Origin: an uncultured bacterium
GTDB lineage: Bacteria; Desulfobacterota_D; UBA1144; Nemesobacterales; UBA2774
Direction: 5' to 3'
Length of the DNA stretch: 64,000 nt
NCBI GenBank assembly: GCA_963705505.1
Contig: CAVPJU010000010.1
Span: forward strand, 256,001 to 320,000
Part shown: piece after piece, positions 4,835 through 21,768 of the stretch
Layout of the letters: each line of letters begins with the position of its first letter
How positions within the stretch are numbered: position 1 is the first letter of the stretch
Position numbers and translations under genes: made by a program
The notes under the pieces: model-generated
What the model was told of the DNA's origin: nothing
Seen by the model: the letters and a program-made list of their open reading frames with translations, nothing else
Databases searched by the model: none

Positions 4835-5580
4835 TCAGGCGGATTCGCCTCCGAGCCTTTCCCCGATTCTCCGGAGAAGGTCGAAGTCTAAGCCTTCATC
4901 GGCATCATTGCCATGAATAGTTATTGTATTCGAGTGGGTTATGTTAAATACTTGAGAGAATGCTTTAATAATGCTTCCTTCGACCTCAGACAAATCGACC
5001 TCTTCTTTTCGGGATAGCCACCTCTGAATCGAGGTCATTTTTACGTTTTCTATCCCGCAGGGCACTATCATATCGAAATACGAGAGGTCGGTATTCACAT
5101 TGAGCGCGAAACCGTGATACGTAACCCATCTCTTTACTCCAACGCCGATAGACGCGATCTTATGCCATTTTGCCCAGACGCCGGTAATGCCCTTAATCCT
5201 TCTGCCGCGGATACCGAAATCCTCAAGTGAAATAATAATCGTCTCCTCCAGATTGCGGAGGTACTTATGGATATCCCTCCCCATTTCGCTTAGAGTCCAT
5301 TATCGGATATCCGACGAGCTGACCGGGGCCGTGGTACGTAATATCGCCGCCCCTGCTTATCACCTCGAAATGAATGCCGGCTTTCGCAAGGTAGTTCCTG
5401 GCGGCAAGGAGGTTCCCCATATTGCCCCGCCGTCCGATCGTGAATGTAGGAGGGTGCTCAAGGAGTAAAAGTGTATCGCCGATCTCCCCGTTTCTCCTCA
5501 TTTCCAGGAGCTCAAGCTGGAGGTCGAGGGCTTTATCGGTAGGGGACAAGCCCGAGCTTATAGACATTGAAATCAGCCAT
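4835..5580 (-). CDS. lipB: Lipoyl(octanoyl) transferase, two frameshifts (about 5538 and 5295)
   Basis: Reconstructed as MADFNVYKLGLVPY-DKALDLQ...LLLLEHPPTFTIGR...RGGDITYHGPGQLVGYPI...KIASIGV...HGFALNV...IVPCGI. Confidence 0.9.
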
Positions 5581-5670
5581 GGCTTTATTATAGCCGGGAA
5601 TGGTGGGGTAAGGAATTTGCGGGCGGGTGGGGTTGAGATGACGAATAGCAGAAAGGACAAAAGAAAAAAC

Positions 5671-6005
5671 GAGATTGCCGCGCTCTGCTCGCAATGACAG
5701 AATAAGCAAAGGTACACCCCCATCCTGGCCTATTTTGGGTTGGCAGGCGACGAATCGGGATTCAATTAGCTTAAGTGTCTTTTAGGTAATGGCGTCCTAA
5801 ACCTCTTAATCATCGGTTTAGTTCCCCCTTAAAGGGGGAAGGAAATTAAAGGAAAGGAGGGAATTGAAAGACAAAGATAGATTTCTCATGTTCACTCGAA
5901 ATGACAGGGTGAGGATGAGATTGCCGCGCTGCTTCGCAGCTCGCAATGACAGAATAAGAAAGGTACACCCCCATCCTCACCTTCCCCCTTAATATGGGAG
6001 AAGGG
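5671..6005. repeat. REP-like palindrome mosaic A, with one 91-nt insert
   Basis: GAGATTGCCGCG..CTCGCAATGAC at 5671-5698 and 5917-5950; AGATTTCTC..CGAAATGAC at 5879-5905; GGTACACCCCCATCCT..TTCCCCCTT..GG split (5709-5730 + 5822-5842) and intact (5960-6005). Confidence 0.85.
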
Positions 6006-6036
6006 AAATTAAAGAAGAAATGACAATAGGAATGTA

Positions 6037-7470
6037 TTAGATATTCCTCGCTCTGCCGAGGGCGGCGAGGGCTGCTTCCATTACGGCCTCAGACAGGGTG
6101 GGGTGGGCGTGGGACGTAATCGCTATCTCTAGCGGAGTAGTTTCGAGCGTCCTGCCGACGGCTATCTCGGCTATGAGCTCGGTCGCCCCGTGGCCGATTA
6201 TGTGGGCGCCCAGAATCTCTCCCGTGGCCTTATCCGAAATAATCTTCACGAAACCTTCGGTCTCGCCCGTGCCTACGGCTTTCCCCGCGGCCCTGAACGG
6301 GAACTTCCCGACGCTGTAGTTGAACCCCTTTTCCTTGACCTGCTTTTCAGTCAGCCCTATCATCGATATCTCGGGCTGGCAGTAAACACAACCGGGTATG
6401 TTGTCGTAGTGGACCTTGCTCTTGAGTCCCGCCATCTTCTCGACGGCGGCGACGCCTTCTTCGGACGCCTTGTGAGCGAGGAGCGGAGGCCCTATGACGT
6501 CGCCTATCGCATAGACGTTATCGCAGGTCGTCATGTAAGAATCGTCCGTCTTTATGAATCCCCTCTCGTTAAGCTCTATTCGCAGGTCACTCAGCCCTAT
6601 ATCGCCCGACTTCTTGTAATAGCTCAAAGAAGTAGGCGCATCGTTCGCGACAGGACGTCTCCCGACAGCGACGAGGACCATCGAGGCGGTCACCGTAACC
6701 TCGCTCTTGTCGGCGAGCTTTTCGAGAATTACGTCCGCGTTCTTTTTCTTTTTCTTCACTTCTTTGAATTTCGTGGAAGTCAGGACCTCGATGCCGTTCT
6801 TTTTGAAATTCTTCTCAAGCTCTCTCGACACCTCTTCGTCAGCGCCCGGAATAAGGTGGTCCATCATCTCGACTATGGTCACTTTGCTTCCGAAGGAGTT
6901 ATACACGTAAGCGAATTCGGCCCCTATATACCCTCCTCCGATAACCACGACTGAATCGGGGACCTCTCTGTGAAAAATCGCTTCGTCGCTGGTCATTATC
7001 TGCTTACCGTCGATCTCAAGCCCCGGCAGTGTCATGGGGACAGACCCCGTGGCTATGAGAATCTTGTCGGTGTCGATCTCTATCTGACCGTTCTCCTGTA
7101 TGACGGCGACCTTATTTTTAGCAATTAGTCTGCCGACCCCTTTAAAGAGTGTGGACTTATTTTTCTTGAGCAGGAATTCAACGCCCTTCGTAAGTGTATT
7201 AGATGCGTTCCGGCTCTTGTCTATCACCTTGGAGAAGTCATAAGTAAGCCCTTTATGTTCTATGCCGAACTCCCCCGAATGCTTGAAGTATTGGTAGACT
7301 TCAGCGCATTTGAGTATCGATTTCGAGGGTATGCAGCCCCAGTTGAGGCAAACGCCTCCGGCCTTATCCCTCTCTATCACCGCAACGTTCATTCCGAGCT
7401 GCGCCGCGCGTATTGCGGCAATGTATCCCCCGGGCCCCGATCCTATCACTGTTAAGTCGAATTTTTCCAT
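6037..7470 (-). CDS. lpdA: Dihydrolipoyl dehydrogenase (copy 1)
   Basis: GSGPGGY, GGVCLNWGCIPSK and HAHPTLSE motifs; start placed at MEKFDL because the longer ORF start lies in a REP. Confidence 0.95.
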   Translation of the reverse strand: MEKFDLTVIGSGPGGYIAAIRAAQLGMNVAVIERDKAGGVCLNWGCIPSKSILKCAEVYQYFKHSGEFGIEHKGLTYDFSKVIDKSRNASNTLTKGVEFLLKKNKSTLFKGVGRLIAKNKVAVIQENGQIEIDTDKILIATGSVPMTLPGLEIDGKQIMTSDEAIFHREVPDSVVVIGGGYIGAEFAYVYNSFGSKVTIVEMMDHLIPGADEEVSRELEKNFKKNGIEVLTSTKFKEVKKKKKNADVILEKLADKSEVTVTASMVLVAVGRRPVANDAPTSLSYYKKSGDIGLSDLRIELNERGFIKTDDSYMTTCDNVYAIGDVIGPPLLAHKASEEGVAAVEKMAGLKSKVHYDNIPGCVYCQPEISMIGLTEKQVKEKGFNYSVGKFPFRAAGKAVGTGETEGFVKIISDKATGEILGAHIIGHGATELIAEIAVGRTLETTPLEIAITSHAHPTLSEAVMEAALAALGRARNI

Positions 7471-7528
7471 GGCAGGGACTATTATATATTCAATAGAAAG
7501 TGCGTCAATTGTTTTTTGGGGGGAAAAA

Positions 7529-8240
7529 GAGATTGCCGCGGTTCCTTCGGAACCTCGCAATGACAGATTAAAAAACAAACACGAGACCCTGAATAGATTT
7601 CAGGGTGACGGATTATGGATTCCCGATTTGTTAAAATTTGATTTAGCGGATTGCCAAAGTTAAATAGCAGAATGCTATATAAGCAAAGGCGTCCGGTTCT
7701 TTCTAATTTGGCTTCTACAACATCAGCACGGAGTGATATTCGCGTTCATGGATTCAACTATGAATGACCAATTCTTCACTTGTTCAGAATTGTTGCTCAG
7801 AACCGTTATTCGGGAATGACAAGAATTGATTTTTAAAGGTACACCCCCACCCAGACCCTCCCCCCTCAAGGGGGAGGGAAATAGAAAAAGACTCAGGACA
7901 TTATTGCATTTAGCGAATGGCGTCCGATTCCTTGCTTGCTCGGAATCGTCCCGTAAAACATTTTTATACGCATTAACAAGCGATTTTCTTAACGCCAATT
8001 CTGTGAATGTCGGGGAAAAGGAAAAGCGTTGAGGAACGATAGAATTATTAAGGTACACCCCCACCCAGACCCTCCCCCTCAAGGGGGAGGGGATTATAAA
8101 CAAGAGCAATAGAAAAGAAGAGATCCTGAATATTCTGCGTTAACAAACGAACTACAGTGGAACAGCCGCATTGTTGCATTTAGCCAATGGACGCGCATTC
8201 CTCTGTGCATCGCTTCAGTTCCCCCTCAAGGGGGAGGGAA
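7529..8240. repeat. REP-like palindrome mosaic B, with several inserts of about 90 nt
   Basis: REPs at 7529-7564 and 7583-7609; split GGATTCCCGA (7617-7626)...TTATTCGGGAATGAC (7806-7820); near-identical AAGGTACACCCCCACCCAGACCCTCCCCCTCAAGGGGGAGGG at 7836-7880 and 8050-8091; half-REPs at 8120-8130 and 8219-8240. Confidence 0.85.
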
Positions 8241-8346
8241 ATGGAAAAGTGCCGCGGGTGGAAGCTGTTAATGATGGTTGACTTAAGCAACGCGTGTGCA
8301 TTATTATTTTTATTATAGATTTTCTTCCGCCCGACAGGTCACACGA

Positions 8347-11031
8347 ATGGATGAAGGCACGGATAAAAAGAAAGGGACAGTCAGCCCCGAAGAAGCAGAA
8401 AACAGGGAATGGATCGAATCCCTCGACTACGTCCTTAAGACGAGCGGCCCTGAACGTGTAAGCAAGCTCATCAAAATCCTTCAGATACACGCCCAGAAAA
8501 AGGGCGTCAGGCTCCATTTCACAGCCAACACGCCCTACATCAACACTATCCCCGCCGAGATGCAGCCCCCGTATCCCGGCGACCAGGCTATAGAGTGGAA
8601 CATACGGAGCCTCATCCGATGGAACGCTATGGCCATGGTCGTGCGGGCGAACAGGCTCGAGGAGGGGATAGGGGGTCACATATCAACTTTTGCTTCCGCG
8701 GCGGCACTTTACGAAGTAGCTTTCAACCATTTTCTCAGGGCTAAAAACGGGAACTTTGAGGGGGATATAGTCTATTTCCAGGGTCACGGCGCCCCCGGTG
8801 TCTATTCGAGGGCGTTTCTCGAAGGGCGGCTCACAATAGAAAACCTGCAAAACTTCAGGCGGGAGCTCCAGCCGGAGGGAGGGCTTCCGTCCTACCCCCA
8901 CCCGTGGCTGATGCCGGGATTCTGGCAATACCCCACCGTTTCCATGGGGCTTAGCCCCATAATGGCAATCTACCAGGCCCGTTTCAGCCGCTATCTGGAA
9001 GACCGGGGATTCAAGGAACCCACCGATTCCAAGGTCTGGGCGTTCCTCGGTGACGGCGAATGTGACGAGCCCGAAGCCCTCGGCGCGATCACGCTCGCAT
9101 CGAGAGAAAAGCTCGACAACCTCATTTTCGTCGTCAACTGCAATCTCCAGCGCCTGGACGGCCCGGTGAGGGGCAACGGCAAGATAATACAGGAGCTCGA
9201 GGCTATATTCAGGGGCGCGGGCTGGAATGTCATTAAAGTCATCTGGGGCAGCAACTGGGACCCCTTGCTCGCAAAGGACAAGGACGGGATACTCGTCAAG
9301 AGGATGGGCGAGGTCGTCGACGGCGAGTTCCAGAAATACACGGTCGAATCCGGCGATTATATACGCAAGCACTTTTTCGGGACGGACCCGAGACTCCTCG
9401 AGATGGTAAAAGACCTCACGGACGAGCAATTGGAGAAACTGAGGCGGGGAGGGCACGACCCGGAGAAGATCTATCCCGCATACAAAGCGGCAGTGGAGAA
9501 TAGAGGCTCTCCTACCGTAATACTCGCCAAGACGGTAAAGGGTTACGGTCTCGGCGAAGCGGGAGAGGGCAGGAACATCACTCACCAGCAGAAGAAGCTC
9601 AACGAGGACGAGCTCAAAGAATTCAGGACGAGGTTCAGCATCCCTATATCCGACGAGGAAGTCGTGCGGGCGCCCTTTTACAAACCGCCCGACGACAGCC
9701 CGGAAATAAAATATCTGCAGGAGCGGAGGCGCGAGCTGGGCGGCTATCTGCCGAAGCGGGAAGTCAACTGCGAGCCGCTCGAACCCCCTTCGGAATCGAT
9801 ATTCGAGGAGTTCTACAAAGGCTCGCGAGGAAGACCCGCGGCGACCACCATGGCGATCGTGCGCATGCTCTCGAAGATGCTTAAAGATGAGAACATCGGG
9901 AAATTCATCGTCCCTATAGTGCCCGACGAAGCCCGCACGTTCGGAATGGAGTCCCTGTTCAGACAGGTGGGCATATACTCCCACGCCGGTCAGCTCTACG
10001 AGCCTGTGGACGCGGAGACGCTGTTATTCTACAAAGAGGCCAAAGACGGACAGATACTCGAAGAGGGGATAACCGAGGCAGGCTCCATGTCCTCCTTCAT
10101 AGCGGCCGGCACGGCGTACGCCACGCACGGGATCAACATGATCCCGTTCTTCATTTTTTACTCGATGTTCGGCTTCCAGAGGATAGGTGACCTCGTCTGG
10201 GCCGCGGGCGATTCGAGGGCAAAGGGTTTCATGGTCGGAGGCACCGCGGGGAGGACGACCCTTGCGGGCGAGGGCCTCCAGCACCAGGACGGCCACAGCC
10301 ACCTCCTCGCATACCCGGTCCCCAATCTCAAGTCATACGACCCGGCATACGCATACGAGATAGCCGTCATCCTTCAGGAAGGCATAAGGCGTATGTATAT
10401 AAACCAGGAGAACATTTTCTACTACCTCACGGTCATGAACGAGCCTTACGAGCAGCCGCCCATGCCCGAGGGCTCAAGAGAGGGGATACTGAGGGGGATG
10501 TATAAATTCAGGGCGTCCGGGCTCAGGGACGCCGAACTCCACGCGCAGCTCTTCGGAAGCGGCACTATTCTGAATGAAGTGCTGAAGGCTCAGGATGTGC
10601 TCGGGGAAAAATACGGAGTCGCGGCGGATGTGTGGAGCGTGACGAGCTACAAGGAGCTCTACAGGGACGGCTGTGAGGATGAGCGGTGGAACATGCTCCA
10701 TCCTTCCGAGATAAGGAGAGTCCCGTATATAACACAGTGCATCAAGGACGCCCCGGGCGTTTTCGTAGCGGCGTCCGATTACGTGATGGCCCTTCCCGAT
10801 TCGATCTCGCAGTGGCTCCCGCGCCCCCTCGTTTCGCTCGGCACCGACGGCTTCGGCAGGAGCGGAAGCCGGAAGGCGCTGAGAGACTTTTTCGAAGTGG
10901 ACTGGAGATACATTACGCTCGCAGTGCTCGCTTCATTGACGTGGGAAAACAAGATCGGTACGGATACCGTCGAGAAAGCCATAAAGGACCTCGACATCAA
11001 TCCGGGAAAAGCCAACCCTCTGATATCTTAG
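8347..11031 (+). CDS. aceE: Pyruvate dehydrogenase E1, homodimeric type
   Basis: GGHISTFAS, FQGHGAPG, GDGECDE TPP motif, NCNLQRLDGPVRGN, GEGLQHQDGHS. Confidence 0.97.
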   Translation: MDEGTDKKKGTVSPEEAENREWIESLDYVLKTSGPERVSKLIKILQIHAQKKGVRLHFTANTPYINTIPAEMQPPYPGDQAIEWNIRSLIRWNAMAMVVRANRLEEGIGGHISTFASAAALYEVAFNHFLRAKNGNFEGDIVYFQGHGAPGVYSRAFLEGRLTIENLQNFRRELQPEGGLPSYPHPWLMPGFWQYPTVSMGLSPIMAIYQARFSRYLEDRGFKEPTDSKVWAFLGDGECDEPEALGAITLASREKLDNLIFVVNCNLQRLDGPVRGNGKIIQELEAIFRGAGWNVIKVIWGSNWDPLLAKDKDGILVKRMGEVVDGEFQKYTVESGDYIRKHFFGTDPRLLEMVKDLTDEQLEKLRRGGHDPEKIYPAYKAAVENRGSPTVILAKTVKGYGLGEAGEGRNITHQQKKLNEDELKEFRTRFSIPISDEEVVRAPFYKPPDDSPEIKYLQERRRELGGYLPKREVNCEPLEPPSESIFEEFYKGSRGRPAATTMAIVRMLSKMLKDENIGKFIVPIVPDEARTFGMESLFRQVGIYSHAGQLYEPVDAETLLFYKEAKDGQILEEGITEAGSMSSFIAAGTAYATHGINMIPFFIFYSMFGFQRIGDLVWAAGDSRAKGFMVGGTAGRTTLAGEGLQHQDGHSHLLAYPVPNLKSYDPAYAYEIAVILQEGIRRMYINQENIFYYLTVMNEPYEQPPMPEGSREGILRGMYKFRASGLRDAELHAQLFGSGTILNEVLKAQDVLGEKYGVAADVWSVTSYKELYRDGCEDERWNMLHPSEIRRVPYITQCIKDAPGVFVAASDYVMALPDSISQWLPRPLVSLGTDGFGRSGSRKALRDFFEVDWRYITLAVLASLTWENKIGTDTVEKAIKDLDINPGKANPLIS

Positions 11032-11111
11032 CCCGGACCGATACAAATGAGCTGAGAATCCGGGCCGTAATATGTTAAAACAATAGGGATAGAAATAAGA
11101 GGCGGGACGAA

Positions 11112-12504
11112 ATGACAATCGAATTCAAGCTGCCGGACCTCGGGGAAGATATAGAAACAGGGGACGTGGTCAGAGTATATGTATCCCCGGGGGATAGGGT
11201 TGCACAAGAGCAGGCTCTGATGGAGCTCGAGACCGATAAGGCGGCGCTCGAAATACCTTCGCCCGCAGCAGGCGTGATCAAAGAAGTCCACGTAAAGGAA
11301 GGGGATACGATAAAGATAGGACAGCTCCTCGTCACCATAGACGACGGCACGGGCGCGGAGCCTGTAAAAGCAAAGGTTAAAGAAGCAGTCCGAGGAAAAA
11401 GAGGGCAGCGCTCAGAAAAAAGAAACGGAACCCGCGGCAAAACCGGAAGAAAAAAAGGCCAGGGGCACCGTCAGGGTAGAGCCCGAAGAGAGGCCGGTTG
11501 TTAAAGCGGCGAAAGAGCAAAAGAAAGAACCCGCAGCAGAAGCAGGTCTGATTCCAGAAGGTGAAAAGGGGCCAGCCCCACTAAAAATCGTACCGGCTTC
11601 GCCGACTGTGAGAAGGCGCGCTCGCGAGCTTGGGATCGATATAACGAAGGTCAAAGGCTCGGGACCCGGAGGACGTATTACGGAAGAGGACCTCAAGGCT
11701 TCCGGGAAGAAGGCAGCGCCGGAAAAAGAGAAGCCGAAGCCGGAACCTGAGCCTATCGAAGAAAAAGCTGCCCCGGCAGGAACCGCCCCTTCCGCCGACA
11801 AGTGGGGCGAGACAGAGCGCGTCGGGATGTCCAGGGTAAGGAGGCTCACCGCGGAGCGCTTGAGCGAGTCCTGGAAAGCCCCTCACGTCACTCAGCACGA
11901 TAAGGCGGATATTACGGAAGTCGATAAGCTGAGGAAGCAGTACGGCAAGGAGGTGGAGAGCCTGGGGGGGAAGCTGACGATGACCTCTATAATATTAAAG
12001 GCCGTTTCATCGGCGCTCAAGTTATTCCCGCAGTTTAACGCAAGTATCGATATGGAAAACGGCGAGATCATATACAGGAAATACTACAACATCGGAATCG
12101 CAGTCGATACCGACAGGGGGCTGCTCGTACCGGTGATAAAGGACGCGGACAAGAAGAATATCGAAGAGCTGTCCGTCGACCTGAGCGTGCTGTCTGAGAA
12201 AGCGAGGACGAAGAAAATATCCGTCGAGGAGCTACAGGGGGGGACGTTCACGATAAGCAATCTCGGCGGGATCGGAGGGACATACTTCACGCCCGTGATA
12301 AATTCCCCGGAGGTCGCGATACTGGGCATATCCCGCGCGTCGGTCGAGGCCGTCTATATAGACGGACAATTCCAGCCGCGGCTAATGCTCCCGCTCTCCC
12401 TTTCATACGACCACCGTCTCATAGACGGAGCTGACGCGGTGAGGTTCCTCAGATGGGTCGTCGAGGCGCTCGAAGAGCCCTTCAAGCTTTCGCTCGAAGG
12501 GTGA
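11112..12504 (+). CDS. aceF: Pyruvate dehydrogenase E2 dihydrolipoamide acetyltransferase, frameshift near 11370-11400
   Basis: Lipoyl domain ETDKA; E3-binding ASPTVRRRARELG; catalytic YDHRLIDGA. Confidence 0.93.
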
Positions 12505-12561
12505 CGCGCGCAATCAAATAAAACGAGCCGGATATCCGGGCTCGCTTAAGAACTTAAGAAC

Positions 12562-13983
12562 ATGGCGGAAGAAAAAACAACACAGGTAGCCGTTATAGGC
12601 GCGGGTCCCGGAGGTTATCCGGCTGCGTTTCTCGCGGCTGATCTCGGACTCGAAGTTACGCTGATAGACCCGGAAAAGAACCCCGGCGGCGTGTGCCTCT
12701 ACAGGGGATGCATACCGTCGAAGGCCCTTCTACACGCGGCTCAAGTTATAACCGAGGCCCGGCATTCTTCGCGAATGGGCATCGAGTTCGAGAAGCCCGG
12801 AATCGATATCGACAGGCTGAGAGAGTGGAAAAACGAAGTGGTGGAGAAACTGGTCGGTGGTCTCGGTCAGCTGACGAAACAGAGGAAAATAACACATATA
12901 CAGGGAAGGGCCAGGTTCCTCGATCGGCAGAGCCTCGAAATAAAAACGAACGGCGGAACTAGAGAGGTATTAAAATTTGAAAACGCCGTGATAGCGACGG
13001 GCTCGCGTCCTGCATTAATCCCCGGCCTCGATACACCTCCCGGTATCCTCGATTCCACCTCCGCGCTCGACCTCCCCGGAATACCGAAAACTATGCTCAT
13101 AGTCGGGGGAGGGTATATAGGGCTTGAGCTGGGGACGGTCTACGCAGCCCTGGGGACGGAGGTATCGGTCGTAGAGATGACTTCGGGCCTGATGCCGGGT
13201 GTGGACAGGGACCTCGTCAGGGTGCTTCAAAAAAGGTCGGAGGGAATATACAAGGCCATCATGCTCGATACCAGGGTCATCGGGTTGAAGGAAATCGGGA
13301 ACGGGACGATAGTCGAGCTCGAGAGGGGAGGGGAGGAAAAGCTGGAGATGGTATTCGACAAGGTGCTCGTCTCAGTGGGCAGGAAGCCCAACAGCGAGGG
13401 CCTCGGCCTCGAGAATACGAATGTCGAAACAGACTCAAAAGGCTTTATAAAAGTGAATGAGGAAAGGCGGACCACGGAGCCGAATATATTCGCTATCGGC
13501 GACGTAGCGGGCGAGCCGATGCTCGCGCACAAGGCCACGCACGAGGGGCGGGTCGTCGCGGAAATACTCGCCGGGAAAAAGTCGGCGTTTATGCCGAACG
13601 CTATTCCCGCAGTGGTGTTTACAGACCCCGAGATAGCATGGTGCGGACTCACGGAAACGGAAGCGAAGGAAAAAAGGATACCGATAACGGTCGCAAGGTT
13701 CCCCTGGGGCGCGTCCGGAAGGGCCGCAACACTCGACAGACAGGACGGCGCGACGAAGCTCATAGCAGACCCTGAAACGGGACGCGTGCTCGGCGTAGGC
13801 ATAGTCGGACCGGGCGCGGGAGAGCTTATCGCGGAAGGGGTGCTCGCGGTCGAAATGGGAGCGCTCGCCTCCGACATTGCGCTCAGCATACATCCGCATC
13901 CTACCCTGTCGGAGACCCTGATGGAGGCCGCGGAAGCATTCGACGGTCAAAGCACGCACATTTACAGACCCGGAAAAAAATAG
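12562..13983 (+). CDS. lpdA: Dihydrolipoyl dehydrogenase (PDH E3, copy 2)
   Basis: GAGPGGY, GGVCLYRGCIPSK, HPHPTLSE; follows aceEF. Confidence 0.96.
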   Translation: MAEEKTTQVAVIGAGPGGYPAAFLAADLGLEVTLIDPEKNPGGVCLYRGCIPSKALLHAAQVITEARHSSRMGIEFEKPGIDIDRLREWKNEVVEKLVGGLGQLTKQRKITHIQGRARFLDRQSLEIKTNGGTREVLKFENAVIATGSRPALIPGLDTPPGILDSTSALDLPGIPKTMLIVGGGYIGLELGTVYAALGTEVSVVEMTSGLMPGVDRDLVRVLQKRSEGIYKAIMLDTRVIGLKEIGNGTIVELERGGEEKLEMVFDKVLVSVGRKPNSEGLGLENTNVETDSKGFIKVNEERRTTEPNIFAIGDVAGEPMLAHKATHEGRVVAEILAGKKSAFMPNAIPAVVFTDPEIAWCGLTETEAKEKRIPITVARFPWGASGRAATLDRQDGATKLIADPETGRVLGVGIVGPGAGELIAEGVLAVEMGALASDIALSIHPHPTLSETLMEAAEAFDGQSTHIYRPGKK

Positions 13984-14008
13984 CGGAGCCAATGGAGATG
14001 AGACGGTA

Positions 14009-15511
14009 ATGAACGCGGAAGCCCAGGAAGATAAAAAGCCCGAGACTGAATTAGCCCGTCTCAGGGTTATCACCGAGAAATCCTATTTAAAAGCCGCGAT
14101 TGATCTGGTCACCGACATCGCCGGGGCAAGCGGGATCGGCGTTAAAGACGCTCAGAACCTCGACAAGGTGCTCGCCGATATATTCGATAATATAGTGAAA
14201 TACGGTTTTGAAGGCGACAGGCATAAACCAATAGACGTCATCGTATCGAGGCGTCTCCATTCCCTCGTCGTCGCTGTGGAAGACAAGGGCCTCCCCTTCG
14301 ATTACGACAAGCTCGAGTGCGGCGAGGAAAAGAGGTTTCAATCCTACATCTCGAAGCACTATGCAGACGAGGTCCATTTTTCAACCCTTGGCGCCGGCGG
14401 GAACAGGACCGAAGTCGTCAAGAATCTCCCCGCATCCGACATCCGCAATGAAATGGACATATCGGAGCACCACGAACACCTAAAAGCCGCTGAGGCTTCT
14501 CCCGATGAAGAGATCGCGATAGGGATGCTCGACACCGGGAAGATCCACGAGCTCGTGCGCCTCGTTTACAAGTGCTACGGCTATACGTATGCGAACGAAT
14601 TCATGTATTACCCGGAGCAGATCGAAGCCAGGCTCAGTTCCGGGACCATGCTTTCGGCCGCGGCTTATAACAGCAGGAATGAAATCATCGGGCACGTAGG
14701 GTTCATATTCAGCAAGCCGGGCGCGAGGGTCGCGGAGTCGGGTGAAGCCATAGTCGACCCGCGCTACAGAGGCAGGGGCATATTCCAGAAAATGAAAAAT
14801 TATCTGATGGACTACGTGGCTTCGATGAAAGTGGTCGGCATTTACGGGGAAGCCGTCACCGTCCACCCGTACAGTCAGAAGGGGAGCATCGAGTTGGGCG
14901 GCAGGGAGACGGGGTTCCTGCTCGGATACAGCCCCGGCACGGTCTCTTTCCATAACATTTCAGAGAACGAAAGACCGAGGCGTCAGTCAGTCGCCATGAT
15001 GTTCACGCCCGTCACGAAAAGCGGATCCGAGACCTCCTACGTGCCTCACGTTTACAGGGAGCTGATCGGGGGTATATACGAGAGAACGGGCTTCATGAGG
15101 AATCTGTCTCCGGAGGATGAGGGACCGGGATTCAGAGGAAGGCAGAACGGCCGGACGACCGTATCGATAAGGCACGACCACAACCAGGCGCTCATTCAGA
15201 TCGACCGGGTCGGCAGGATGACGTTAAAGGAAATACGCTTTCAGTGGAAGCACCTCGCGCTCGAGCGTTTCGATTGTATATACGTCGATCTGCCTCTCAG
15301 GCAAAAGGGGGCGGGCTACGTCGCCTCCGAGCTGCGCAAGTCCGGGTTTTTCTTCGGGTGCGTTATCCCCGAATACAGGGACGGGGACATACTGAGGCTC
15401 CAGTACCTGAACAACGTCGAGATATCGAGGGACGATATAAAGACCGCGTCTGACTTCGGGGAGCGTCTCCTCGGCACTATCTTCGAGGACATGTCCGAGG
15501 TCAGCTCGTAG
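14009..15511 (+). CDS. RsbW-like HATPase domain fused to a GNAT acetyltransferase domain
   Basis: N-terminal NIVKYG...VEDKGLPFD; central AIVDPRYRGRGI acetyl-CoA motif. Confidence 0.75.
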   Translation: MNAEAQEDKKPETELARLRVITEKSYLKAAIDLVTDIAGASGIGVKDAQNLDKVLADIFDNIVKYGFEGDRHKPIDVIVSRRLHSLVVAVEDKGLPFDYDKLECGEEKRFQSYISKHYADEVHFSTLGAGGNRTEVVKNLPASDIRNEMDISEHHEHLKAAEASPDEEIAIGMLDTGKIHELVRLVYKCYGYTYANEFMYYPEQIEARLSSGTMLSAAAYNSRNEIIGHVGFIFSKPGARVAESGEAIVDPRYRGRGIFQKMKNYLMDYVASMKVVGIYGEAVTVHPYSQKGSIELGGRETGFLLGYSPGTVSFHNISENERPRRQSVAMMFTPVTKSGSETSYVPHVYRELIGGIYERTGFMRNLSPEDEGPGFRGRQNGRTTVSIRHDHNQALIQIDRVGRMTLKEIRFQWKHLALERFDCIYVDLPLRQKGAGYVASELRKSGFFFGCVIPEYRDGDILRLQYLNNVEISRDDIKTASDFGERLLGTIFEDMSEVSS

Positions 15512-15541
15512 AATAATCCGGCAGCGGATATGCGGAGTGCT

Positions 15542-16255
15542 TCACGACTTCCCGTAAACGGGTATCGCCGCGCCGCTTACCGCGCGGGCGTCGTCCGAGC
15601 ATAGGAACGCGATGACCTTGCCTACGTCCCGGGGATCCACCCATTTTGTAAAGTCAGCGTCCGGCATGCTCTTTCTGTTGGCCGGTGTGTCCATAGTGCC
15701 GGGGATTATCGCGTTGACGTTGATATTGTGCTCTCGGAGTTCCTCGGCCATCGACTGTGTGAGGTTCAGCACTCCGGCCTTTGAAGCGCCGTACGCCGAA
15801 AGGTTAGGTGAGCCCTTGAGCGCCGGGCGCGAGGCTATGTTTACGATACTGCCGCGGCCCTGCTTCGTCATGTGAGGAACGACACCCTTCGAGCAGAGGA
15901 AAGCGGATCTGAGGTTCATGTTCATCATCCTGTCCCACGTCTCCTCGTCCGTGTCCGCGACAGGGGACTGCGCAAACCCGCCGACTACGTTTACGAGAAT
16001 ATCTATACGGGAGAACTTCTCTATAGTTTTTGTCACCACGTTCGAGACATTGGACGCCTTCGTCACATCCGCCTTGCCGAATGCTATCCTGGACTTATAC
16101 TCTTCACGCAGACTCACGCACCCTTTTAACTCTTCCTCATCGATGTAGGTGCTCAACACACACGCACCTTGTCCGAGGAACACATTTACCACGGCTTTTC
16201 CGAGCCCTCCGGTTCCGCCTGTTATGATCGCGACCTTGTCTTTTAACTGTTTCAT
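15542..16255 (-). CDS. Short-chain dehydrogenase/reductase
   Basis: TGGTGGLG, YGASK. Confidence 0.92.
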   Translation of the reverse strand: MKQLKDKVAIITGGTGGLGKAVVNVFLGQGACVLSTYIDEEELKGCVSLREEYKSRIAFGKADVTKASNVSNVVTKTIEKFSRIDILVNVVGGFAQSPVADTDEETWDRMMNMNLRSAFLCSKGVVPHMTKQGRGSIVNIASRPALKGSPNLSAYGASKAGVLNLTQSMAEELREHNINVNAIIPGTMDTPANRKSMPDADFTKWVDPRDVGKVIAFLCSDDARAVSGAAIPVYGKS

Positions 16256-16395
16256 TCCCGCCCCCTGGTTTTATGCCGATAATTATCCTTCCACAAGCCT
16301 TCCAAATCAATATATGCTTATGAAAGACGGTCTTGACATTCTCACCGGACTGAAAATACAATAGAGTTGCATTACCCCCCGCGCGAGAGAGGTAT

Positions 16396-16734
16396 ATGGA
16401 GTTATTCATTTCGATGAAGGCGGAAACCATCAACAAGGGCATTTATTTTCAGGAGAGCAATATCATGCAAATGCCCACCGCCCAATCCAAGGGTTATTTC
16501 ATAGCCGAATTCAGGGAAGGGAGCGATGAGAAACTCAGGCTTCTGAAAAAATACGTGGATATTCTCAGGAGTAAGCTCGAAGGTGATGATGAATTTCATA
16601 TAGAAGACACCCATATAGGATTCAAGCTCCTGAAAAAGGTCGAAGAGGATAAGGAATACATGGAGGTCTGGGCGGAATGGGTAATATTTTCGCGGAACCT
16701 CCTGAGGGATCTGGAGGAAATAGTCGATATGTAG
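16396..16734 (+). CDS. Hypothetical protein
   Basis: Preceded by TTGACA-18-TACAAT (16333-16362) and GAGG; start could instead be at 16464. Confidence 0.6.
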   Translation: MELFISMKAETINKGIYFQESNIMQMPTAQSKGYFIAEFREGSDEKLRLLKKYVDILRSKLEGDDEFHIEDTHIGFKLLKKVEEDKEYMEVWAEWVIFSRNLLRDLEEIVDM

Positions 16735-16874
16735 GGCCCCGGCTTGCATTTCCCCGCATCTAAGCTAATATTTTTCTTCAACTCGAAGTTGAAAATTATA
16801 TTCTATCCATCTCTATCGATTGAATATTATCCCGAATAGTATAGCTTTTGCCCGTTAAGGAGAAATGGCACCCG

Positions 16875-19721
16875 ATGTCGGAGGCGAAAAAAAGAAATTA
16901 TAAAGACACGCTCAACCTTCCGCGGACGGATTTCCCGATGAAGGCGAACCTCAATCAGAAAGAGCCCGAGTACCAGAAAAGGTGGAAAAAGATAAGGCTC
17001 TTCGAGAGGATGAGGGAGAAATCAAAAGGACAGGAAAAATTCATCTTCCACGACGGCCCGCCTTATGCGAACGGTCCCATACACCTGGGCCATCTGCTAA
17101 ATAAGGTGCTCAAGGACATAGTGGTGAGGTCGAAAACGATGCTGGGCTACGATGTGGATTTCGTCCCCGGCTGGGACTGCCACGGGCTGCCTATCGAGCA
17201 CAAGGTGTTAAAGGAGCTGGGGGAGGAAGCTAAAGAGCTCTCCAAAATAAAGATAAGATACAAGTGTCAGGCATACGCCGAAAAGTACGTGAAGCTTCAG
17301 GCGGGCCAGATGCAGAGCCTGGGCACGATAGGGGATTACGAACACCCGTACCTCACCATGACACCCGGCTACGAAGCCGGAGTGCTCGAGGTATTTTCGA
17401 AGCTCCTCGAAAGGGGGCTCGTTTACAGGGACTTAAAACCGGTCCACTGGTCGATCGAGAACCGGACCGCGCTTGCGGACGCAGAGCTCGAATATTATGA
17501 CAGGAACGACAGGAGCATTTACGTCCTCTTCGAAATAGAAAACCCGGAAGGCCTTCCCGCAAACCTCAATCTCCCCACGGACGTGTCTCCATCGCTCATG
17601 ATATGGACGACGACGCCCTGGACGCTTCCGGCGAACCTCGCTGTCGCCGTCTCGCCCGAAGGGAACTACAGCCTCTACCGTGTCACGAAAGACGGAAAGG
17701 AATATTATGTGGTCCTCGTGGAGAACCTTGCCGAGACCGTGTTCAAAAAATCCGGGACGGCGGAATACGAGAAACTGGGCACATGCACCGGACAGGAGCT
17801 GCACGATATGCCGGTGACATACAGGCACCCGTTCGCGGGACGCATGGGAAAGGTGGTTCTGGCGGATTACGTCACGTTCGATGAAGGCACGGGTCTTGTA
17901 CATACAGCGCCCGGCCACGGCATAGAGGACTATCAGACGGGGCTCAGGGAAGGGCTCGATATCTACTGCCCGGTGCTCGAGGACGGCACATTCGACGATA
18001 CCGTTCCCGAATGGTTACGCGGGCAGGACGTATGGGAGGCGAACGGGATAATAACCGACCGGCTCAGGGAATCGGGGAACCTATATTACGAAGAAGAATA
18101 CCTTCACAGCTACCCGCATGACTGGAGGAGCAAATCCCCCACGATATTCAGGGCTACCGAACAGTGGTTCATAAGCGTAGATAAGCGCATAGAGGAGTTC
18201 GGAGGGACTCTCAGGGAGCTTGCTCTCGAGTACTCGCGGAGCGGCATAGAATTCTACCCCGAGTGGGGCAGAAACAGGCTCAGAGGCATGCTCGAAGCGA
18301 GGCCGGACTGGTGCATAAGCCGCCAGAGAGCATGGGGGCTTCCCATACCTGCGTTCATGAGCGAGAGGGGAGAGATATTACTGACTCCGGATTCTGTGAA
18401 TGCAGTCATAGAAAAAATAAGACAAAAAGGGGCCAATTACTGGTTTCAGGCAACGGAAGAGGAAATACTCGAAGGCTACGACCCGGGGCAGGACAAGAAT
18501 GCGCCCGCATGGATAAAGAAAAAAGGGGCGCTCACGAAATTAAGGAAGGGCATGGACATATTCGACGTGTGGTTCGAGTCCGGCTCTTCGTGGCACTCGG
18601 TCCTGGAGCTGAGGAACATAGGGTACCCCGCAGACCTCTACCTCGAAGGGTCTGACCAGCACAGGGGCTGGTTTCAGCTCTCGCTCCTTCCCGCGCTCGG
18701 CGTGACAGGCAGGCCGCCTTTCAAAGCTCTCCTCACGCACGGCTTCATGGTCGACGCACACGGGAGGAAGATGAGCAAGTCCGGAGGGAACGCCCTCGAA
18801 GTGGACGAGCTCTTGAAGCAGCACGGGGCCGACATATGCAGGTGGTGGGTAAGCTCCCTCAAATATACGAACGACATAAAGGTCGATTGGGAGTTCTTCA
18901 AAGCAGCGGGGGAGGAATACAGGAAAGTCAGAAATACTATAAGGTTCCTGCTCGGGAATATATACGACTTCGATGCGGAAAAGGACGGCGTCAAATTTTC
19001 GGATGAGGACAGATACACGATCGACGGCTGGGCCATGGGAGAGCTCTCAAAATTCGTCCGGGAGACGAAGGAAGCCTACGACGGATTCCAGTACAAGAGG
19101 GCAAGCGAGCTGATATACGGTTTCTGCTACGATACTCTCAGCGCCGTTTATCTCGCAGCCACGAAGGACAGGCTCTATTGCGAACGGAGCGGCAGCAGGA
19201 AGAGGAGAAGGTGTCAGACCGCCATGTACCGTATTGCGGACGCGCTTATTAAACTGCTCGCGCCCATTCTCGCTCATACCTCCGACGAGGCATACCTTCA
19301 TCTGAGAGGAGAATCCGCCGACTCCGACGAGAGCGTGCATCTCATGGGCATGCCCGATGAAATAGAGACGGATACCGACCCGAACTGGGAAATGGTAATG
19401 GATATAAGGAGCAAGGTGTCAAAAGCGCTCGAAGAGGCGAAGGAGTCCCAGGGCGTATCCAACCCCCTCGATACGGGAGTGGAGGTTAGCCTCGAGTCCG
19501 AGTCTTACAGTAAGCTAAAACCATTCGAGCCCGAGCTTGCCGACCTCTCGGGTGTGAGCAGGTTTTCGCTAACGGAGGGAGAGGATTTTAAAATCACTAT
19601 CAATGACCTCACGGACGAGCCCAGGTGTGAGCGTTCCTGGAAGAGGGACGGCACCGTGAGAGAGCGCTCGGACGGGGGATTCCTTTCGGATAGGGATGCG
19701 GAGGCGCTGGGGATTGATTAG
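16875..19721 (+). CDS. ileS: Isoleucine--tRNA ligase (type 1)
   Basis: HDGPPYANG, HLGH, WTTTPWT, GTGLVH, EGSDQHRGWF, KMSKS. Confidence 0.97.
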   Translation: MSEAKKRNYKDTLNLPRTDFPMKANLNQKEPEYQKRWKKIRLFERMREKSKGQEKFIFHDGPPYANGPIHLGHLLNKVLKDIVVRSKTMLGYDVDFVPGWDCHGLPIEHKVLKELGEEAKELSKIKIRYKCQAYAEKYVKLQAGQMQSLGTIGDYEHPYLTMTPGYEAGVLEVFSKLLERGLVYRDLKPVHWSIENRTALADAELEYYDRNDRSIYVLFEIENPEGLPANLNLPTDVSPSLMIWTTTPWTLPANLAVAVSPEGNYSLYRVTKDGKEYYVVLVENLAETVFKKSGTAEYEKLGTCTGQELHDMPVTYRHPFAGRMGKVVLADYVTFDEGTGLVHTAPGHGIEDYQTGLREGLDIYCPVLEDGTFDDTVPEWLRGQDVWEANGIITDRLRESGNLYYEEEYLHSYPHDWRSKSPTIFRATEQWFISVDKRIEEFGGTLRELALEYSRSGIEFYPEWGRNRLRGMLEARPDWCISRQRAWGLPIPAFMSERGEILLTPDSVNAVIEKIRQKGANYWFQATEEEILEGYDPGQDKNAPAWIKKKGALTKLRKGMDIFDVWFESGSSWHSVLELRNIGYPADLYLEGSDQHRGWFQLSLLPALGVTGRPPFKALLTHGFMVDAHGRKMSKSGGNALEVDELLKQHGADICRWWVSSLKYTNDIKVDWEFFKAAGEEYRKVRNTIRFLLGNIYDFDAEKDGVKFSDEDRYTIDGWAMGELSKFVRETKEAYDGFQYKRASELIYGFCYDTLSAVYLAATKDRLYCERSGSRKRRRCQTAMYRIADALIKLLAPILAHTSDEAYLHLRGESADSDESVHLMGMPDEIETDTDPNWEMVMDIRSKVSKALEEAKESQGVSNPLDTGVEVSLESESYSKLKPFEPELADLSGVSRFSLTEGEDFKITINDLTDEPRCERSWKRDGTVRERSDGGFLSDRDAEALGID

Positions 19722-19741
19722 GCGGTTTCAGACTAAAAAAT

Positions 19742-19944
19742 AAATCCACCCTAGCCCTCCTTTACAAAAGGAGGGAATTATATAACAAAAGATGAGATCC
19801 TGAATCAAGTTCAGGATGACTGATTTTAATAAAAGGTGACACCCCCATCCTCACCTTCCCCCCTCAAGGGGGAAGGTAATAAATACTGCGCCCTTCGATC
19901 CTTCGACTTCGCTCAGGACAGGCTCACTGCTCGAGGATGAACGG
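19742..19944. repeat. REP-like palindrome mosaic C between convergent ileS and HIT genes (no 90-nt insert)
   Basis: CCCTCCTTTACAAAAGGAGGG; GAGATCCTGAATCAAGTTCAGGATGAC (19794-19820); CCCCCATCCTCACCTTCCCCCCTCAAGGGGGAAGG; CCTTCGACTTCGCTCAGGACAGG. Confidence 0.85.
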
Positions 19945-19981
19945 GTAATAAAATTACAGTATTCGAGACTGACACATTATA

Positions 19982-20323
19982 CTATCCGGGGGGCCAGTTC
20001 ATCTGCCTGCCGCCGAGGATATGCAGATGGACGTGGTAAACCTCCTGGCCGCCCTCCTTGTTCGTATTGATGACGATGCGGTAGCCGGAATCGGATACAC
20101 CGTGGTTTCTTGCGATTTCGGAAGCCTTGATGAGCAGATGCCCGAGGAGCGATTTATCCTTCTCAGTAACTTCCGCGAGTGAAGGTATCTCTCTTTTCGG
20201 CACGAGCAGAATATGAACGGGCGCTTTCGGGTCTATATCCTTAAAAGCGATACACTCATCGTCCTCATATACGATGGCAGCCGGTATCTTTCTATCGATT
20301 ATCCTCGTGAATATGGAACTCAT
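19982..20323 (-). CDS. hinT: Histidine triad (HIT) nucleotide-binding protein
   Basis: GQEVYHVHLHILGGRQMNWPPG. Confidence 0.92.
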   Translation of the reverse strand: MSSIFTRIIDRKIPAAIVYEDDECIAFKDIDPKAPVHILLVPKREIPSLAEVTEKDKSLLGHLLIKASEIARNHGVSDSGYRIVINTNKEGGQEVYHVHLHILGGRQMNWPPG

Positions 20324-20427
20324 AATCGTCTCCTGCTCCAGTGATATAAACTGAACCCGATAGTTATTAACCAATATAACACAGTTGCCCCGGCGCTCAA
20401 TCGGGAATTACGTATTTTATTTTTATG

Positions 20428-20672
20428 GTACCCCCTCACCCTAACCCACCTTTACGAAAGGAGGGAATTAAAAGGAAAGGACGAGATTGCCGCGCCGCGA
20501 TTTGTTTTTGGTTCCTTCATCCCGCGGTAAAGGTACTTGAATGTATTCTGTGAAGGGCGTCCGGTTGCGCGCTTGCTTACAACCGTTGCGGCTCGCAATG
20601 ACCGGTCTATCACCCCCATCCTTCACCTTCCCCCCTCGAGGGGGAAGGAAGTAAAAAGGCTCGGACGAACGG
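20428..20672. repeat. REP-like palindrome mosaic D, with one insert of about 85-87 nt
   Basis: CCCCCTCACCCTAACCCACCTTTACGAAAGGAGGG; split GAGATTGCCGCGCCGC (20483-20498)...TTGCGGCTCGCAATGAC (20586-20602); CACCCCCATCCTTCACCTTCCCCCCTCGAGGGGGAAGG. Confidence 0.85.
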
Positions 20673-20703
20673 GCCAATAAGATTAAATCCCCAGCAGTCC
20701 TAT

Positions 20704-21768
20704 TCAAAGCTTTATCCCGCGCCAGCTTTCGATTGGGTCGGTCGAGCGGACTACGTTCATTCCGGCATCGGAGAATCTGGCGAACGCCTTATCCGCTTCC
20801 TCCGTATAGTCGATCACGCCCGGAACCACGACGGGGGACGTGCAGTCTTCCAGCAGGTATATCTTTTCTACTAGCCCCTCATCCCCGGCCATGACCTTCT
20901 CCAGAAGGTCGGCTATGGTCCACGCGACGCAGTGGCTCTTTGCCTGACCCGCTATTATCACCGCATCGAACTCCGTGAGCTTCCCGTATATCGCCTCCGA
21001 AGCCGCGGGCTTCTGAAAGAGCGATTCGGTCCTTAGAATGAGCGGCTTTCCGTCGGGCCCCGTGGACACCTCGGGGCCGAGGACCGAGTAATGCTCGGTC
21101 AAAGGGTGGTCTCCCTTTACGTGAATATCGGGCTGGCTGAAGCGGGCGATCGAATGAAAGAAAACCGCTTCCTCCACAGAGGACGCGAGCGCGTGACCTA
21201 TGCCTCCGAGCATCGCATGGTAAGGCCATATCGTGAGCTCGTATTTGCCTGACTTTTTTAATTCTCTCGTGTAATGAAGTAAGTGGCGCTCCATATAATC
21301 ATCGCCGTGCATGAGGCTGTGGCTGAGCTTCTTATTGAACCTCCACCTGCCGGCCTCTATGTCCTCGACCGAGATGAGCGTATAGGGGGCAGGGTGCTCC
21401 CCGCGTTCGTTTACAAAAAATATTCCGTGAAATATCTGCATCGCCTGGTGCGTATCCATTGTAGGGGCGATCTCCGTAATACAACCCAGGTTCCTGTACA
21501 TGAACTCGCAGAGCCTCCTGTTGTCGTCCACGGCTCCCCGTCCAGAGCGCCCGCCCACGAAGAGCTCGAAGCCCGGTATGCAGAACGTGTTCTGAGCGTC
21601 CACAATGATGAGCGATATCCTGAACCCGTCCACAGAAGAGGGCCGGATGCCGTGCTTACCCGCCCATTCCGCAGCGGAATGGGAGATAGACTGATACTCG
21701 ACCCTGAAGACGTCTCCCGTTTTGTCGGGATCAAAATGCGGGGGCAAGGGCAGCTCTCTCTTTTTCAT
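20704..21768 (-). CDS. Isochorismatase / nicotinamidase-like cysteine hydrolase
   Basis: [30 protein letters not shown]. Confidence 0.85.

Follow-up and report, generated by a model that had tools for sequence, protein, structure and literature searches.

Palindromic repeats and inserted units in the window

The window, a stretch of 64,000 nucleotides from an uncultured bacterium of the Desulfobacterota_D lineage (GenBank assembly GCA_963705505.1, contig CAVPJU010000010.1, positions 256,001 to 320,000), contains a set of short units that are all located inside or directly beside palindromic intergenic repeats (window positions 5500-8500 and 20200-20900). The original prediction had listed seven such units, U1 to U7, and proposed that they were either a diverged non-autonomous mini-element targeting repetitive extragenic palindromes (REPs) or measured fragments of foreign DNA captured around a motif. 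This observation is largely real but mis-segmented: the idea of a mini-element was right, that of a capture system was wrong, and six of the units are members of a single family of elements, ~90 nt long and devoid of genes, that is specific to this lineage. Working labels are used for the host repeats (REP-A, REP-B, REP-C, REP-D and LP) and for two subfamilies of the elements (class I and LP-E). The host repeats are as follows.

REP-A: GAGATTGCCGCG...CTCGCAATGAC; host of U7, in its loop
REP-B: C-rich leader, then a C-rich/G-rich hairpin; host of U1
REP-C: GGATTCCCG...CGGGAATGAC; host of U2, in its loop
REP-D: CCTGAA...TTCAGG; host of U6
LP: long palindrome of ~130 nt; outer stem CACAGAAT/ATTCTGTG

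A covariance model of the family (R1), built from 35 copies located elsewhere in the genome together with U1 and U7, was run unfiltered over the whole window. The units, with their R1 matches, are given below.

U1, 5731..5821, + strand: complete 91-nt class I element; left end TATTTTGG, core GGCGTCC at 5791-5797, hairpin TAAACC/GGTTTA, final G at 5821; R1 match 5741-5823, E 4e-16
U2, 5' part, 7626..7703, + strand: inside the REP-C loop, the REP-C 5' stem (..ATTCCCG) running up to 7625; core 7688-7694, 5' stem GGTTCT at 7695-7700, then 1-3 loop bases; R1 match 7635-7698, E 1.6e-5
U3, 7704..7792, + strand: 89-nt element nested in the U2 terminal-hairpin loop; left end TAATTTGG, variant core AATGACC, hairpin AATTCT/AGAATT, final G at 7792; R1 match 7714-7794, E 2e-9
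U2, 3' part, 7793..7805, + strand: loop remainder TTGCTC, 3' stem AGAACC at 7799-7804, closing G at 7805
U4, 7886..7948, + strand: 3' two-thirds of an LP-E element in a truncated LP tip; core 7919-7925, hairpin GATTCC/GGAATC, final G at 7948; R1 match 7870-7950, E 7e-20
U5, 7949..8016 (originally placed at 7949-8038), + strand: not an element but the right arm of the LP palindrome (..ATTCTGTGAATGTCGGGG tail); no R1 match
U6, 8131..8218, + strand: decayed copy whose core (GGACGCG) is degenerate and whose hairpin is degraded; R1 match 8140-8190, weak (E 0.012)
U7, 20501..20585, + strand: complete element in the REP-A loop; core 20556-20562, hairpin GGTTGC/(A)CAACC, final G at 20585, left boundary uncertain by ~2 nt; R1 match 20507-20587, E 9e-19

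Six of the seven proposed units (U1, U2, U3, U4, U6 and U7) are thus recognized by R1 as one family, U6 weakly, while U5 is a host-repeat arm; all six lie on the + strand, in agreement with the common orientation originally noted. U1 interrupts the 5' strand of REP-B between CC and TT, and upon its removal the flanks ..CC and TTCCCCC..GGGGGAAGG rebuild a 9-bp stem, as in the intact REP-B at ~5960-6010; the insertion of U1 was therefore exact, without duplication or loss. U2 and U3 had been read as adjacent units, but U3 interrupts the loop of the terminal hairpin of U2, whose stem strands occupy 7695-7700 and 7799-7804, and the REP-C 3' stem (CGGGAAT, 7811-7817) follows the closing G of U2; a paralogous U2 and U3 composite is found on contig C5 of the same assembly, at ~58.54-58.70 kb. 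A copy of REP-B stands in place of the left part of U4 and of the LP left arm, and full-length paralogues of U4 exist. U6 is located between the halves of a CCTGAA...TTCAG palindrome (REP-D), immediately 5' of a REP-B hairpin. A scan of window positions 5000-21500 against Rfam 15 returned no family, the only match being a sub-threshold one to CRISPR-DR57, on the REP-B hairpin.

LP repeats (~130-200 nt, a T-rich hairpin followed by CACAGAAT...ATTCTGTGAATGTCGGGG) are present along the whole 74 kb of C5, on C9 and C4, and at 7886-8016 of the window. They are spaced 1-8 kb apart with constant strand and separate groups of 1-6 accessory genes encoded on either strand; no recombinase was found among the scanned open reading frames (ORFs).

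Copy number and architecture of the element family

The working genome (G000) is a 2.88-Mb assembly of 10 contigs, 93.6% complete. The genome-wide profile scan called for in the original prediction was carried out with an nhmmer profile seeded with 40 sites combining GGCGTCC and a hairpin, taken from genome-wide motif listings; it yielded 70 matches in G000 and none in the reversed, uncomplemented genome (E <= 0.01). An alignment of 35 copies (A1), on which the consensus, the hairpin pairing and the junction counts are based, gave a single consensus across ~80 columns. The copies are homologous from end to end, those of class I being alignable over their full length, at variance with the earlier description of the units as mostly unrelated in sequence.

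Each element consists of a T-rich left end (TATTTTGG-like), the conserved GGCGTCC core and, at the right, a 7-bp terminal hairpin, composed of 6-nt stem strands and an additional pair that the closing G forms with the final C of the core. RNAalifold applied to A1 supported this helix only, with the core C pairing with the final G in 35/35 copies and compensatory changes at six of the seven pairs, that is, at all except this one. While the stem sequence varies, the pyrimidine-rich loop of 10-11 nt is conserved (YGCTYGCTY-like). The distance of 23-24 nt from core to junction, correctly reported for several units beforehand, is real and results from this geometry (6 + 10/11 + 6 + 1). The invariant final G (35/35 copies) marks the exact right boundary of the element. 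The right junction had been described as G|TT at all four junctions onto a REP half; GT holds in 34/35 aligned copies and the full GTT in 23/35, and GTTC spans the junction in 13/35. No consensus structure was supported outside the terminal hairpin in either A1 or the class I alignment, and the folding energies of six single-stranded copies were ordinary (z -2.1 to +0.5).

In 33 curated copies the length ranges from 71 to 93 nt, with a mode of 90. Class I, the commonest subfamily (left end TATTTTGG or TAATTTGG), measures 89-93 nt in 15 of 17 copies, the remaining two having 76 and 86 nt; LP-E elements, which occupy LP tips and begin with AATTAG..., measure 85-87 nt. Units of the tRNA-associated type are 71-73 nt long and reach 87-90 nt when the 16-17-nt copy of the tRNA end that follows them is included.

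Insertion sites and genomic placement

The 53 copies with complete 3' ends were classified by insertion site as follows.

Just 5' of the C-rich hairpin (REP-B): 17/53, two assignments being doubtful
LP tips: 11/53
Nested in the terminal-hairpin loop of another copy: 8/53
After tRNA 3' ends: 3/53
REP-A or REP-C loops: 3/53
Other: 11/53; several of these occupy additional palindromes, one adjoins a tRNA gene at its 5' end, and four are located where the genes of a family on C9 end (3')

At least 42 of the 53 adjoin or sit in a palindromic repeat, a tRNA end or another copy. Subfamily and target go together: LP-E is found only in LP tips and class I mostly at REP-B, one further subfamily resides in the loops of other copies and another behind tRNAs. 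Nesting reaches three levels on C5, at ~24.15-24.42 kb. In REP-B the elements enter at the edge of the stem. The usual insertion point is before a T and after a C-rich run, left junctions read C|T(A/G), and the last 3-4 nt of the left flank are variable, with no invariant tetranucleotide. Filled and empty forms differ by 2-6 nt at LP tips and loops, and in the examples read the orientation relative to the host repeat is constant. The junction tables revealed neither terminal inverted repeats nor target duplication at repeat targets, as originally stated; that statement fails only at tRNA ends, where a target duplication is seen.

The copies are concentrated in accessory regions: 48 of the 70 lie on C5, C9 and C4, which amount to 137 kb in total, with 34 on C5 (74 kb), 10 on C9 and 4 on C4, and a single one on the 821-kb C6. 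All 34 copies on C5 share one strand, and the orientation bears no clear relation to GC skew. On C9 (25037-28668 and 37988-38767), ORFs of 177 aa form a small family, a member of which bears an IPTL-CTERM sorting motif; element copies are antisense to these ORFs, abutting or overlapping their 3' ends. At C5:55520-55601, an LP-tip element retains just the first 13 nt of a nested copy in its hairpin loop, a remnant that may be the footprint of an imprecise excision or of an internal deletion.

Arrays at tRNA ends

Tandem units follow tRNA-Arg(CCT), two in G000 and about nine in the congener G007, with a 14-16-nt copy of the tRNA 3' end after each. Similar arrays are found at tRNA-Arg(UCU) and tRNA-Glu, the tRNA-end copies measuring 17 and 11 nt (15 and 9 without the junction Ts), and a tRNA-Arg(ACG) gene on C4 shows a corresponding duplication of its 5' end. 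Units within one array differ in sequence and are therefore considered to be separate arrivals. On C8, a 4-kb block of two genes is flanked by a tRNA array on one side and, on the other, by a further copy with tRNA-end-like sequence behind it. None of the standard mechanisms considered explains the duplication of tRNA ends and the duplication-free insertions jointly.

A tRNA-derived origin of the array units was considered and is unproven: on visual inspection their 5' part is similar to positions 3-16 of a tRNA, but the model RF00005 was silent even at E <= 10, and no match to Rfam 15 was obtained. A palindrome, CACACA(T/A)AGTGTG, is present after several tRNA genes or unit arrays (G000 C8:189460, C10:547130 on the - strand and C4 ~110-130; G007 C9:369240), and may represent a terminator or a further repeat family.

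Mobility and distribution among relatives

Assembled contigs of four public sequencing runs were compared with window positions 5300-8700. A 151-nt contig from one metagenome (run X4, depth 2.5) matches 7609-7701 and 7795-7846 without mismatch, six other letters replacing the intervening 93 nt, and corresponds to an intact 11-nt U2 loop without U3; the filled form is represented by a 285-nt contig from a different study (run X3) that spans 7615-7898. The filled/empty polymorphism that the original prediction had asked for is thus observed at U3, the empty allele being one low-depth contig. Among congeners, the spacer orthologous to that of U7 varies: G002 and G007 have only ~18 nt, in G008 an intact REP-A is present, and G004 carries a different copy in a REP-A-like repeat. 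In the spacers around a 513-aa ORF (6037-7578), the sets of repeats and elements differ in every congener inspected. Nine LP-tip copies are 93% identical on average, compared with 78% and 82% for the LP arms, and the arm variants of filled sites are also found empty. Beside conserved genes, spacers range from 18 nt to ~800 nt among congeners (window 5500-8300 and 20380-20700 compared with loci L011-L017 and L143-L149), a variation that is due entirely to differing loads of REPs, LP repeats and elements.

Matches to R1 were obtained in 23 of 41 related genomes, including 9/9 of the genus, with 18 to at least 113 copies each, and 4/4 of a second genus; G007 searched alone gave 137. Elsewhere among the searched genomes of the order, R1 matched only in G026, from family f3, with 15 copies. 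In viral contigs, the exact core pattern occurred at 11 loci, of which only one, on a 1.2-kb contig, is a convincing, though uninformative, partial copy. Window positions 7600-8230 had no match among 50,697 phage or 72,556 plasmid records, contrary to what an origin of the supposedly variable parts in such replicons would predict.

Search for a resident recombinase

The absence of a candidate enzyme, previously noted for the window, holds for the entire assembly as regards the families searched, DDE transposases not being among them. No matches were found in G000 for Y1_Tnp (PF01797), RVT_1, the TnpB zinc ribbon or Resolvase (serine recombinase), nor for Y2_Tnp and the NCBIfam model of IS91, the last two results being weak because their controls were silent. 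The best match to the integron integrase (TIGR02249) in G000 scored 90.7 bits against a cut-off of 265, and Pfam searches covering 42 ORFs on C9 and, on C5, 63 of 66 called revealed no recombinase or transposase. Of the site-specific recombinase families tested, that of the tyrosine recombinases alone was found in G000, with eight matches; none is located on the contigs rich in elements, namely C5 and C9 of G000 and C10 of G007 (four congeners inspected). One integrase pseudogene (G000 C10:547318-547719, - strand), lacking its N-terminus and ending just short of the catalytic tyrosine, lies ~12 nt upstream of tRNA-Arg(UCU) and its array.

Y1 genes are present in 15 of the 41 relatives. In a related genome (locus L038, G003:C8, ~1348-1974), a RAYT-like Y1 gene with a 209-aa open frame is bracketed by inverted REPs of the ATCGCGGCTGGAAGCCGCTCC type, which is a classical REPtron arrangement. 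This gene was considered as the mover and rejected, as its flanking REP differs and the nearest element lies ~800 nt away, inside a REP-A. REPs of the ATCGCGGCTGGAAGCCGCTCC type also occur in G000, for example at the 5' end of C4, although G000 has no Y1 gene.

Comparison with known systems

IS621 and ISPa11 are insertion sequences (ISs) of the IS110/IS1111 group that use a bridge RNA or a seekRNA. The present elements resemble this group in their precise, orientation-specific and duplication-free insertion into REPs and palindromes and in their size, equal to that of its guide RNAs, since seekRNAs of IS1111/IS110 elements measure 74-96 nt (PMC11187229); moreover, a member of the family in congeners targets REP-B as the elements do. 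They differ from it in having no DEDD gene, no detected guide segments and no subterminal inverted repeats of the IS1111 type. Of the features that would mark IS110 derivatives, precise duplication-free insertion into REPs was found, whereas neither a resident DEDD gene nor IS ends matching those of the elements were.

The closest published analogue is the ssr9 module of ISPpu9. ISPpu9, an IS110-family element of Pseudomonas putida KT2440, sits in REPs; copies of ssr9 occur alone, flanked by IS-like boxes, or beside the ISPpu9 transposase gene, and circles containing only ssr9 form with the ISPpu9 transposase (PMC12288879). Like ssr9, the present elements are small, non-coding and without a transposase, ssr9 being found alone or beside an IS that is itself hosted by REPs; it also forms its own circles, moves in trans, lacks inverted repeats and recombines at a dinucleotide (PMC12288879). 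The lack of inverted repeats is seen in the present elements as well, while for them circles, movement in trans and a core of 1-2 nt are inferred. On the other hand, the A' and B' boxes of ssr9 are nearly identical to the IS ends, while no IS with matching ends and no IS110 gene are present here, the copy number is 10-40 times higher here, and a covarying terminal hairpin, nesting and tRNA-end arrays are not described for ssr9.

The remaining systems share fewer traits with the family. REPs and REPINs, the repeats mobilized by RAYTs, are likewise short, hairpin-forming, intergenic, abundant, lineage-specific, vertically persistent and recognized by structure, but REPs are palindromes of 20-40 nt and REPINs inverted pairs of them, whereas the elements are 90 nt long, asymmetric and inserted into REPs; a single-copy RAYT gene flanked by the repeat is not found, G000 having no PF01797 match and the gene of G003 being flanked by another REP. 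The palindrome-associated transposable elements (PATEs) of IS200/IS605 also lack inverted repeats and duplications, have hairpin ends and insert strand-specifically, but carry hairpins at both ends and use a fixed left target tetranucleotide, neither of which the elements show. Integron attC sites and ORF-less cassettes are similar in size, in recognition of a hairpin, in the G|TT right junction and in forming co-oriented arrays in accessory regions; nevertheless, the elements have no R''/R' inverse core sites, their left junction is not G|TT, their hairpin is confined to the 3' end instead of extending across the element, and IntI is missing, so that of the integron hallmarks (IntI, the R''-L''...L'-R' arrangement and G|TT at both junctions) only the right-hand G|T is present. 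Of the hallmarks of classical miniature inverted-repeat transposable elements, terminal inverted repeats are absent, as are, at repeat targets, fixed-length duplications. IS1397 and ISKpn1 (IS3 family) insert into the loops of REP palindromes and are autonomous 1.4-kb ISs with inverted repeats and 3-4-bp duplications; the elements share the REP-loop insertion but are gene-less and without inverted repeats. No description of such elements was found in the literature, in which repeats of Dadabacteria were not specifically searched.

Mechanistic interpretation

The homology of the copies, their conserved ends, their orientation-specific presence in at least five kinds of palindromic repeat and in their own loop, the filled and empty forms at U3 and the differences in occupancy between congeners all support the reading as a diverged non-autonomous mini-element targeting REPs, and the units very probably constitute a family of mobile non-autonomous elements. 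As to the mechanism, we tentatively favour, with somewhat less than even confidence, conservative recombination by an enzyme acting in trans, for which the IS110/IS1111 family offers the best fit. An excised and probably circular copy would move by conservative site-specific recombination, the donor being cut at the foot of the hairpin and the target at a core of 1-2 nt, with the recombinase supplied in trans and encoded outside this genome. DEDD recombinases of the IS110/IS1111 family would be the best-fitting known mechanism because of their precise targeting of REPs, the absence of duplication and their mobilization of small non-coding passengers, as in ISPpu9 and ssr9. Taken by itself, an IS110-like identity of the mover is possible but doubtful, and a mechanism of a kind so far undescribed is unlikely.

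An IS110-family IS of ~1.2 kb was found in the congeners G001 and G004, inserted in REP-B between ..AATCCTCCC and TAACCC..., 5-6 nt from the class I site, at the following loci.

L032 (G004:C15), 869-2200, - strand
L033 (G001:C119), 1240-2470
L048-L050

A G000 copy (C10:472685) shares the CC^TA position with this IS, the junctions of which likewise read C|T. In its 250-nt upstream non-coding region, the target left flank and the IS right end are repeated, each followed by TTAG, an arrangement that, judged from the sequence, is as expected for a bridge RNA.

Several observations weigh against the favoured mechanism. The DEDD domain of IS110 (PF01548) has no match in G000 and occurs in only 3/9 congeners and 9/41 relatives, without correlation with element copy number. 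The IS of G001 and G004 was rejected as a parent: its ends (TTGTATC.. and ..GGTATC) are unlike those of the elements, a TTAAGG-like motif near the left end being the sole similarity, no trace of it exists in G000, and a class I neighbour is present at one of its four copies in G004 and not at the single one in G001, so that the adjacency is attributable to chance. A second IS110-type gene (G003:C19) was rejected as well, with an element at none of the 80 metagenome loci, kept of 148 confirmed, that code for its relatives. Pairing of elements with their flanks did not exceed chance: exact matches between the two are mostly of 4-6 nt and at most 4-7 nt, except for one of 9 nt, and have no consistent position, although a search by exact match would miss short or mismatched guides. 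Furthermore, recombination of the IS110 type leaves the 9-17-nt tRNA-end copies after array units unexplained, and variable stems with a conserved loop suit structure-specific recognition by a protein better than RNA-guided recognition of the donor. Separately, no element was seen on the IS110-type contigs of G017 and G026.

Hairpins with covarying stems, a conserved loop and a conserved flanking core are classic substrates of HUH endonucleases, and an enzyme of the RAYT, IS200/IS605 or IS91 kind could move the elements as single-stranded DNA, recognizing the hairpin from its shape and the sequence of its loop, cutting at the G|T of its foot and pasting the strand into the single-stranded loops of other repeats. 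The lack of inverted repeats and duplications, the many targets that are hairpin loops and would be single-stranded when extruded, the strong regional co-orientation (34/34 on C5) and the Y1 genes of 15/41 relatives are in line with this, as is GTTC, the target of IS91, across 13/35 right junctions. We nonetheless regard it as improbable, given that G000 lacks matches to Y1_Tnp and, more weakly in view of the silent controls, to Y2_Tnp and the IS91 transposase, that REPs of another kind (ATCGCGGCTGGAAGCCGCTCC type) bracket the RAYT-like gene inspected in G003, that left flanks have no invariant tetranucleotide, that there is a hairpin at one end only and that orientation does not clearly follow GC skew. 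A tyrosine recombinase, either the integrase of a tRNA island or the host Xer, is improbable to the same degree. The 70-nt body and the hairpin would then be the arm of an attachment site, and small circles would integrate by crossover at short identities, generating arrays of a unit plus a tRNA-end copy and marking the borders of accessory blocks. Such arrays do exist after tRNA-Arg(CCT), tRNA-Glu and tRNA-Arg(UCU), with 9-17 nt of the tRNA 3' end after each unit and a combined length (87-90 nt) equal to that of class I elements; an integrase pseudogene abuts the tRNA-Arg(UCU) locus, the two-gene block on C8 is bounded as would be expected, and this is the only type of site-specific recombinase in G000 among the families tested. 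Yet the REP-B, LP and loop targets display no 6-8-bp identity or duplication, with at most one shared T, an integron-type integrase was not found (best 90.7 versus 265 bits), the element-rich contigs C5 and C9 of G000 and C10 of G007 are without an integrase, and sequence-specific binding to a core does not predict variable hairpin arms.

It is also conceivable, though unlikely, that these are hairpin-seeking mini elements whose target is set by their own sequence and whose mover is an enzyme of a type hitherto without a link to transposition or a housekeeping enzyme of the host; the covarying stem would serve as a cis-encoded guide for the element's own end or as a fold-back signal, and the tRNA-end duplication would point to a mechanism unlike all of the families tested. 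A cellular function, as a small RNA or a protein-binding site spread passively with REP blocks and without movement of its own, is very improbable: core and loop are conserved across genera, and purifying selection would also yield LP-tip copies better conserved than their surroundings, but the absence of an Rfam match, of a consensus structure beyond the terminal hairpin and of unusual folding energies (z -2.1 to +0.5, six copies) argues against it, as do the six unrelated contexts, the self-nesting, the absence from an otherwise identical allele and the concentration in accessory regions (48/70 copies on 137 kb, one on the 821-kb C6). The probability of a system storing measured foreign fragments in hairpins is close to negligible. 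Near-constant lengths and the location in repeat arrays had suggested it; however, the supposedly variable parts are homologous between copies and genomes, length and core offset follow from the architecture of the element itself, window positions 7600-8230 match no phage or plasmid, and no Cas1-like or acquisition gene turned up among the scanned ORFs of C5 and C9, in a survey not aimed at them.

Significance

What appeared to be a capture system becomes a definable family of selfish DNA with diagnostic features and no visible transposase, an undescribed, lineage-specific and non-autonomous family with an unusual, structure-defined end and unusual targets. Genomes of this uncultured and little-studied lineage carry ~70-140 copies each. 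The elements reshape intergenic regions, as all of the orthologous spacers examined differ between congeners, and indicate where the genome is flexible. Should an RNA-guided recombinase of the IS110 type prove to be the mover, they would be natural minimal substrates of an enzyme family that now serves genome engineering; otherwise, an end defined by structure, combined with insertion into hairpin loops and duplicated tRNA ends, points to an undescribed mechanism. The covariance model and the junction rules make this question testable in any genome or metagenome of the Dadabacteria type.

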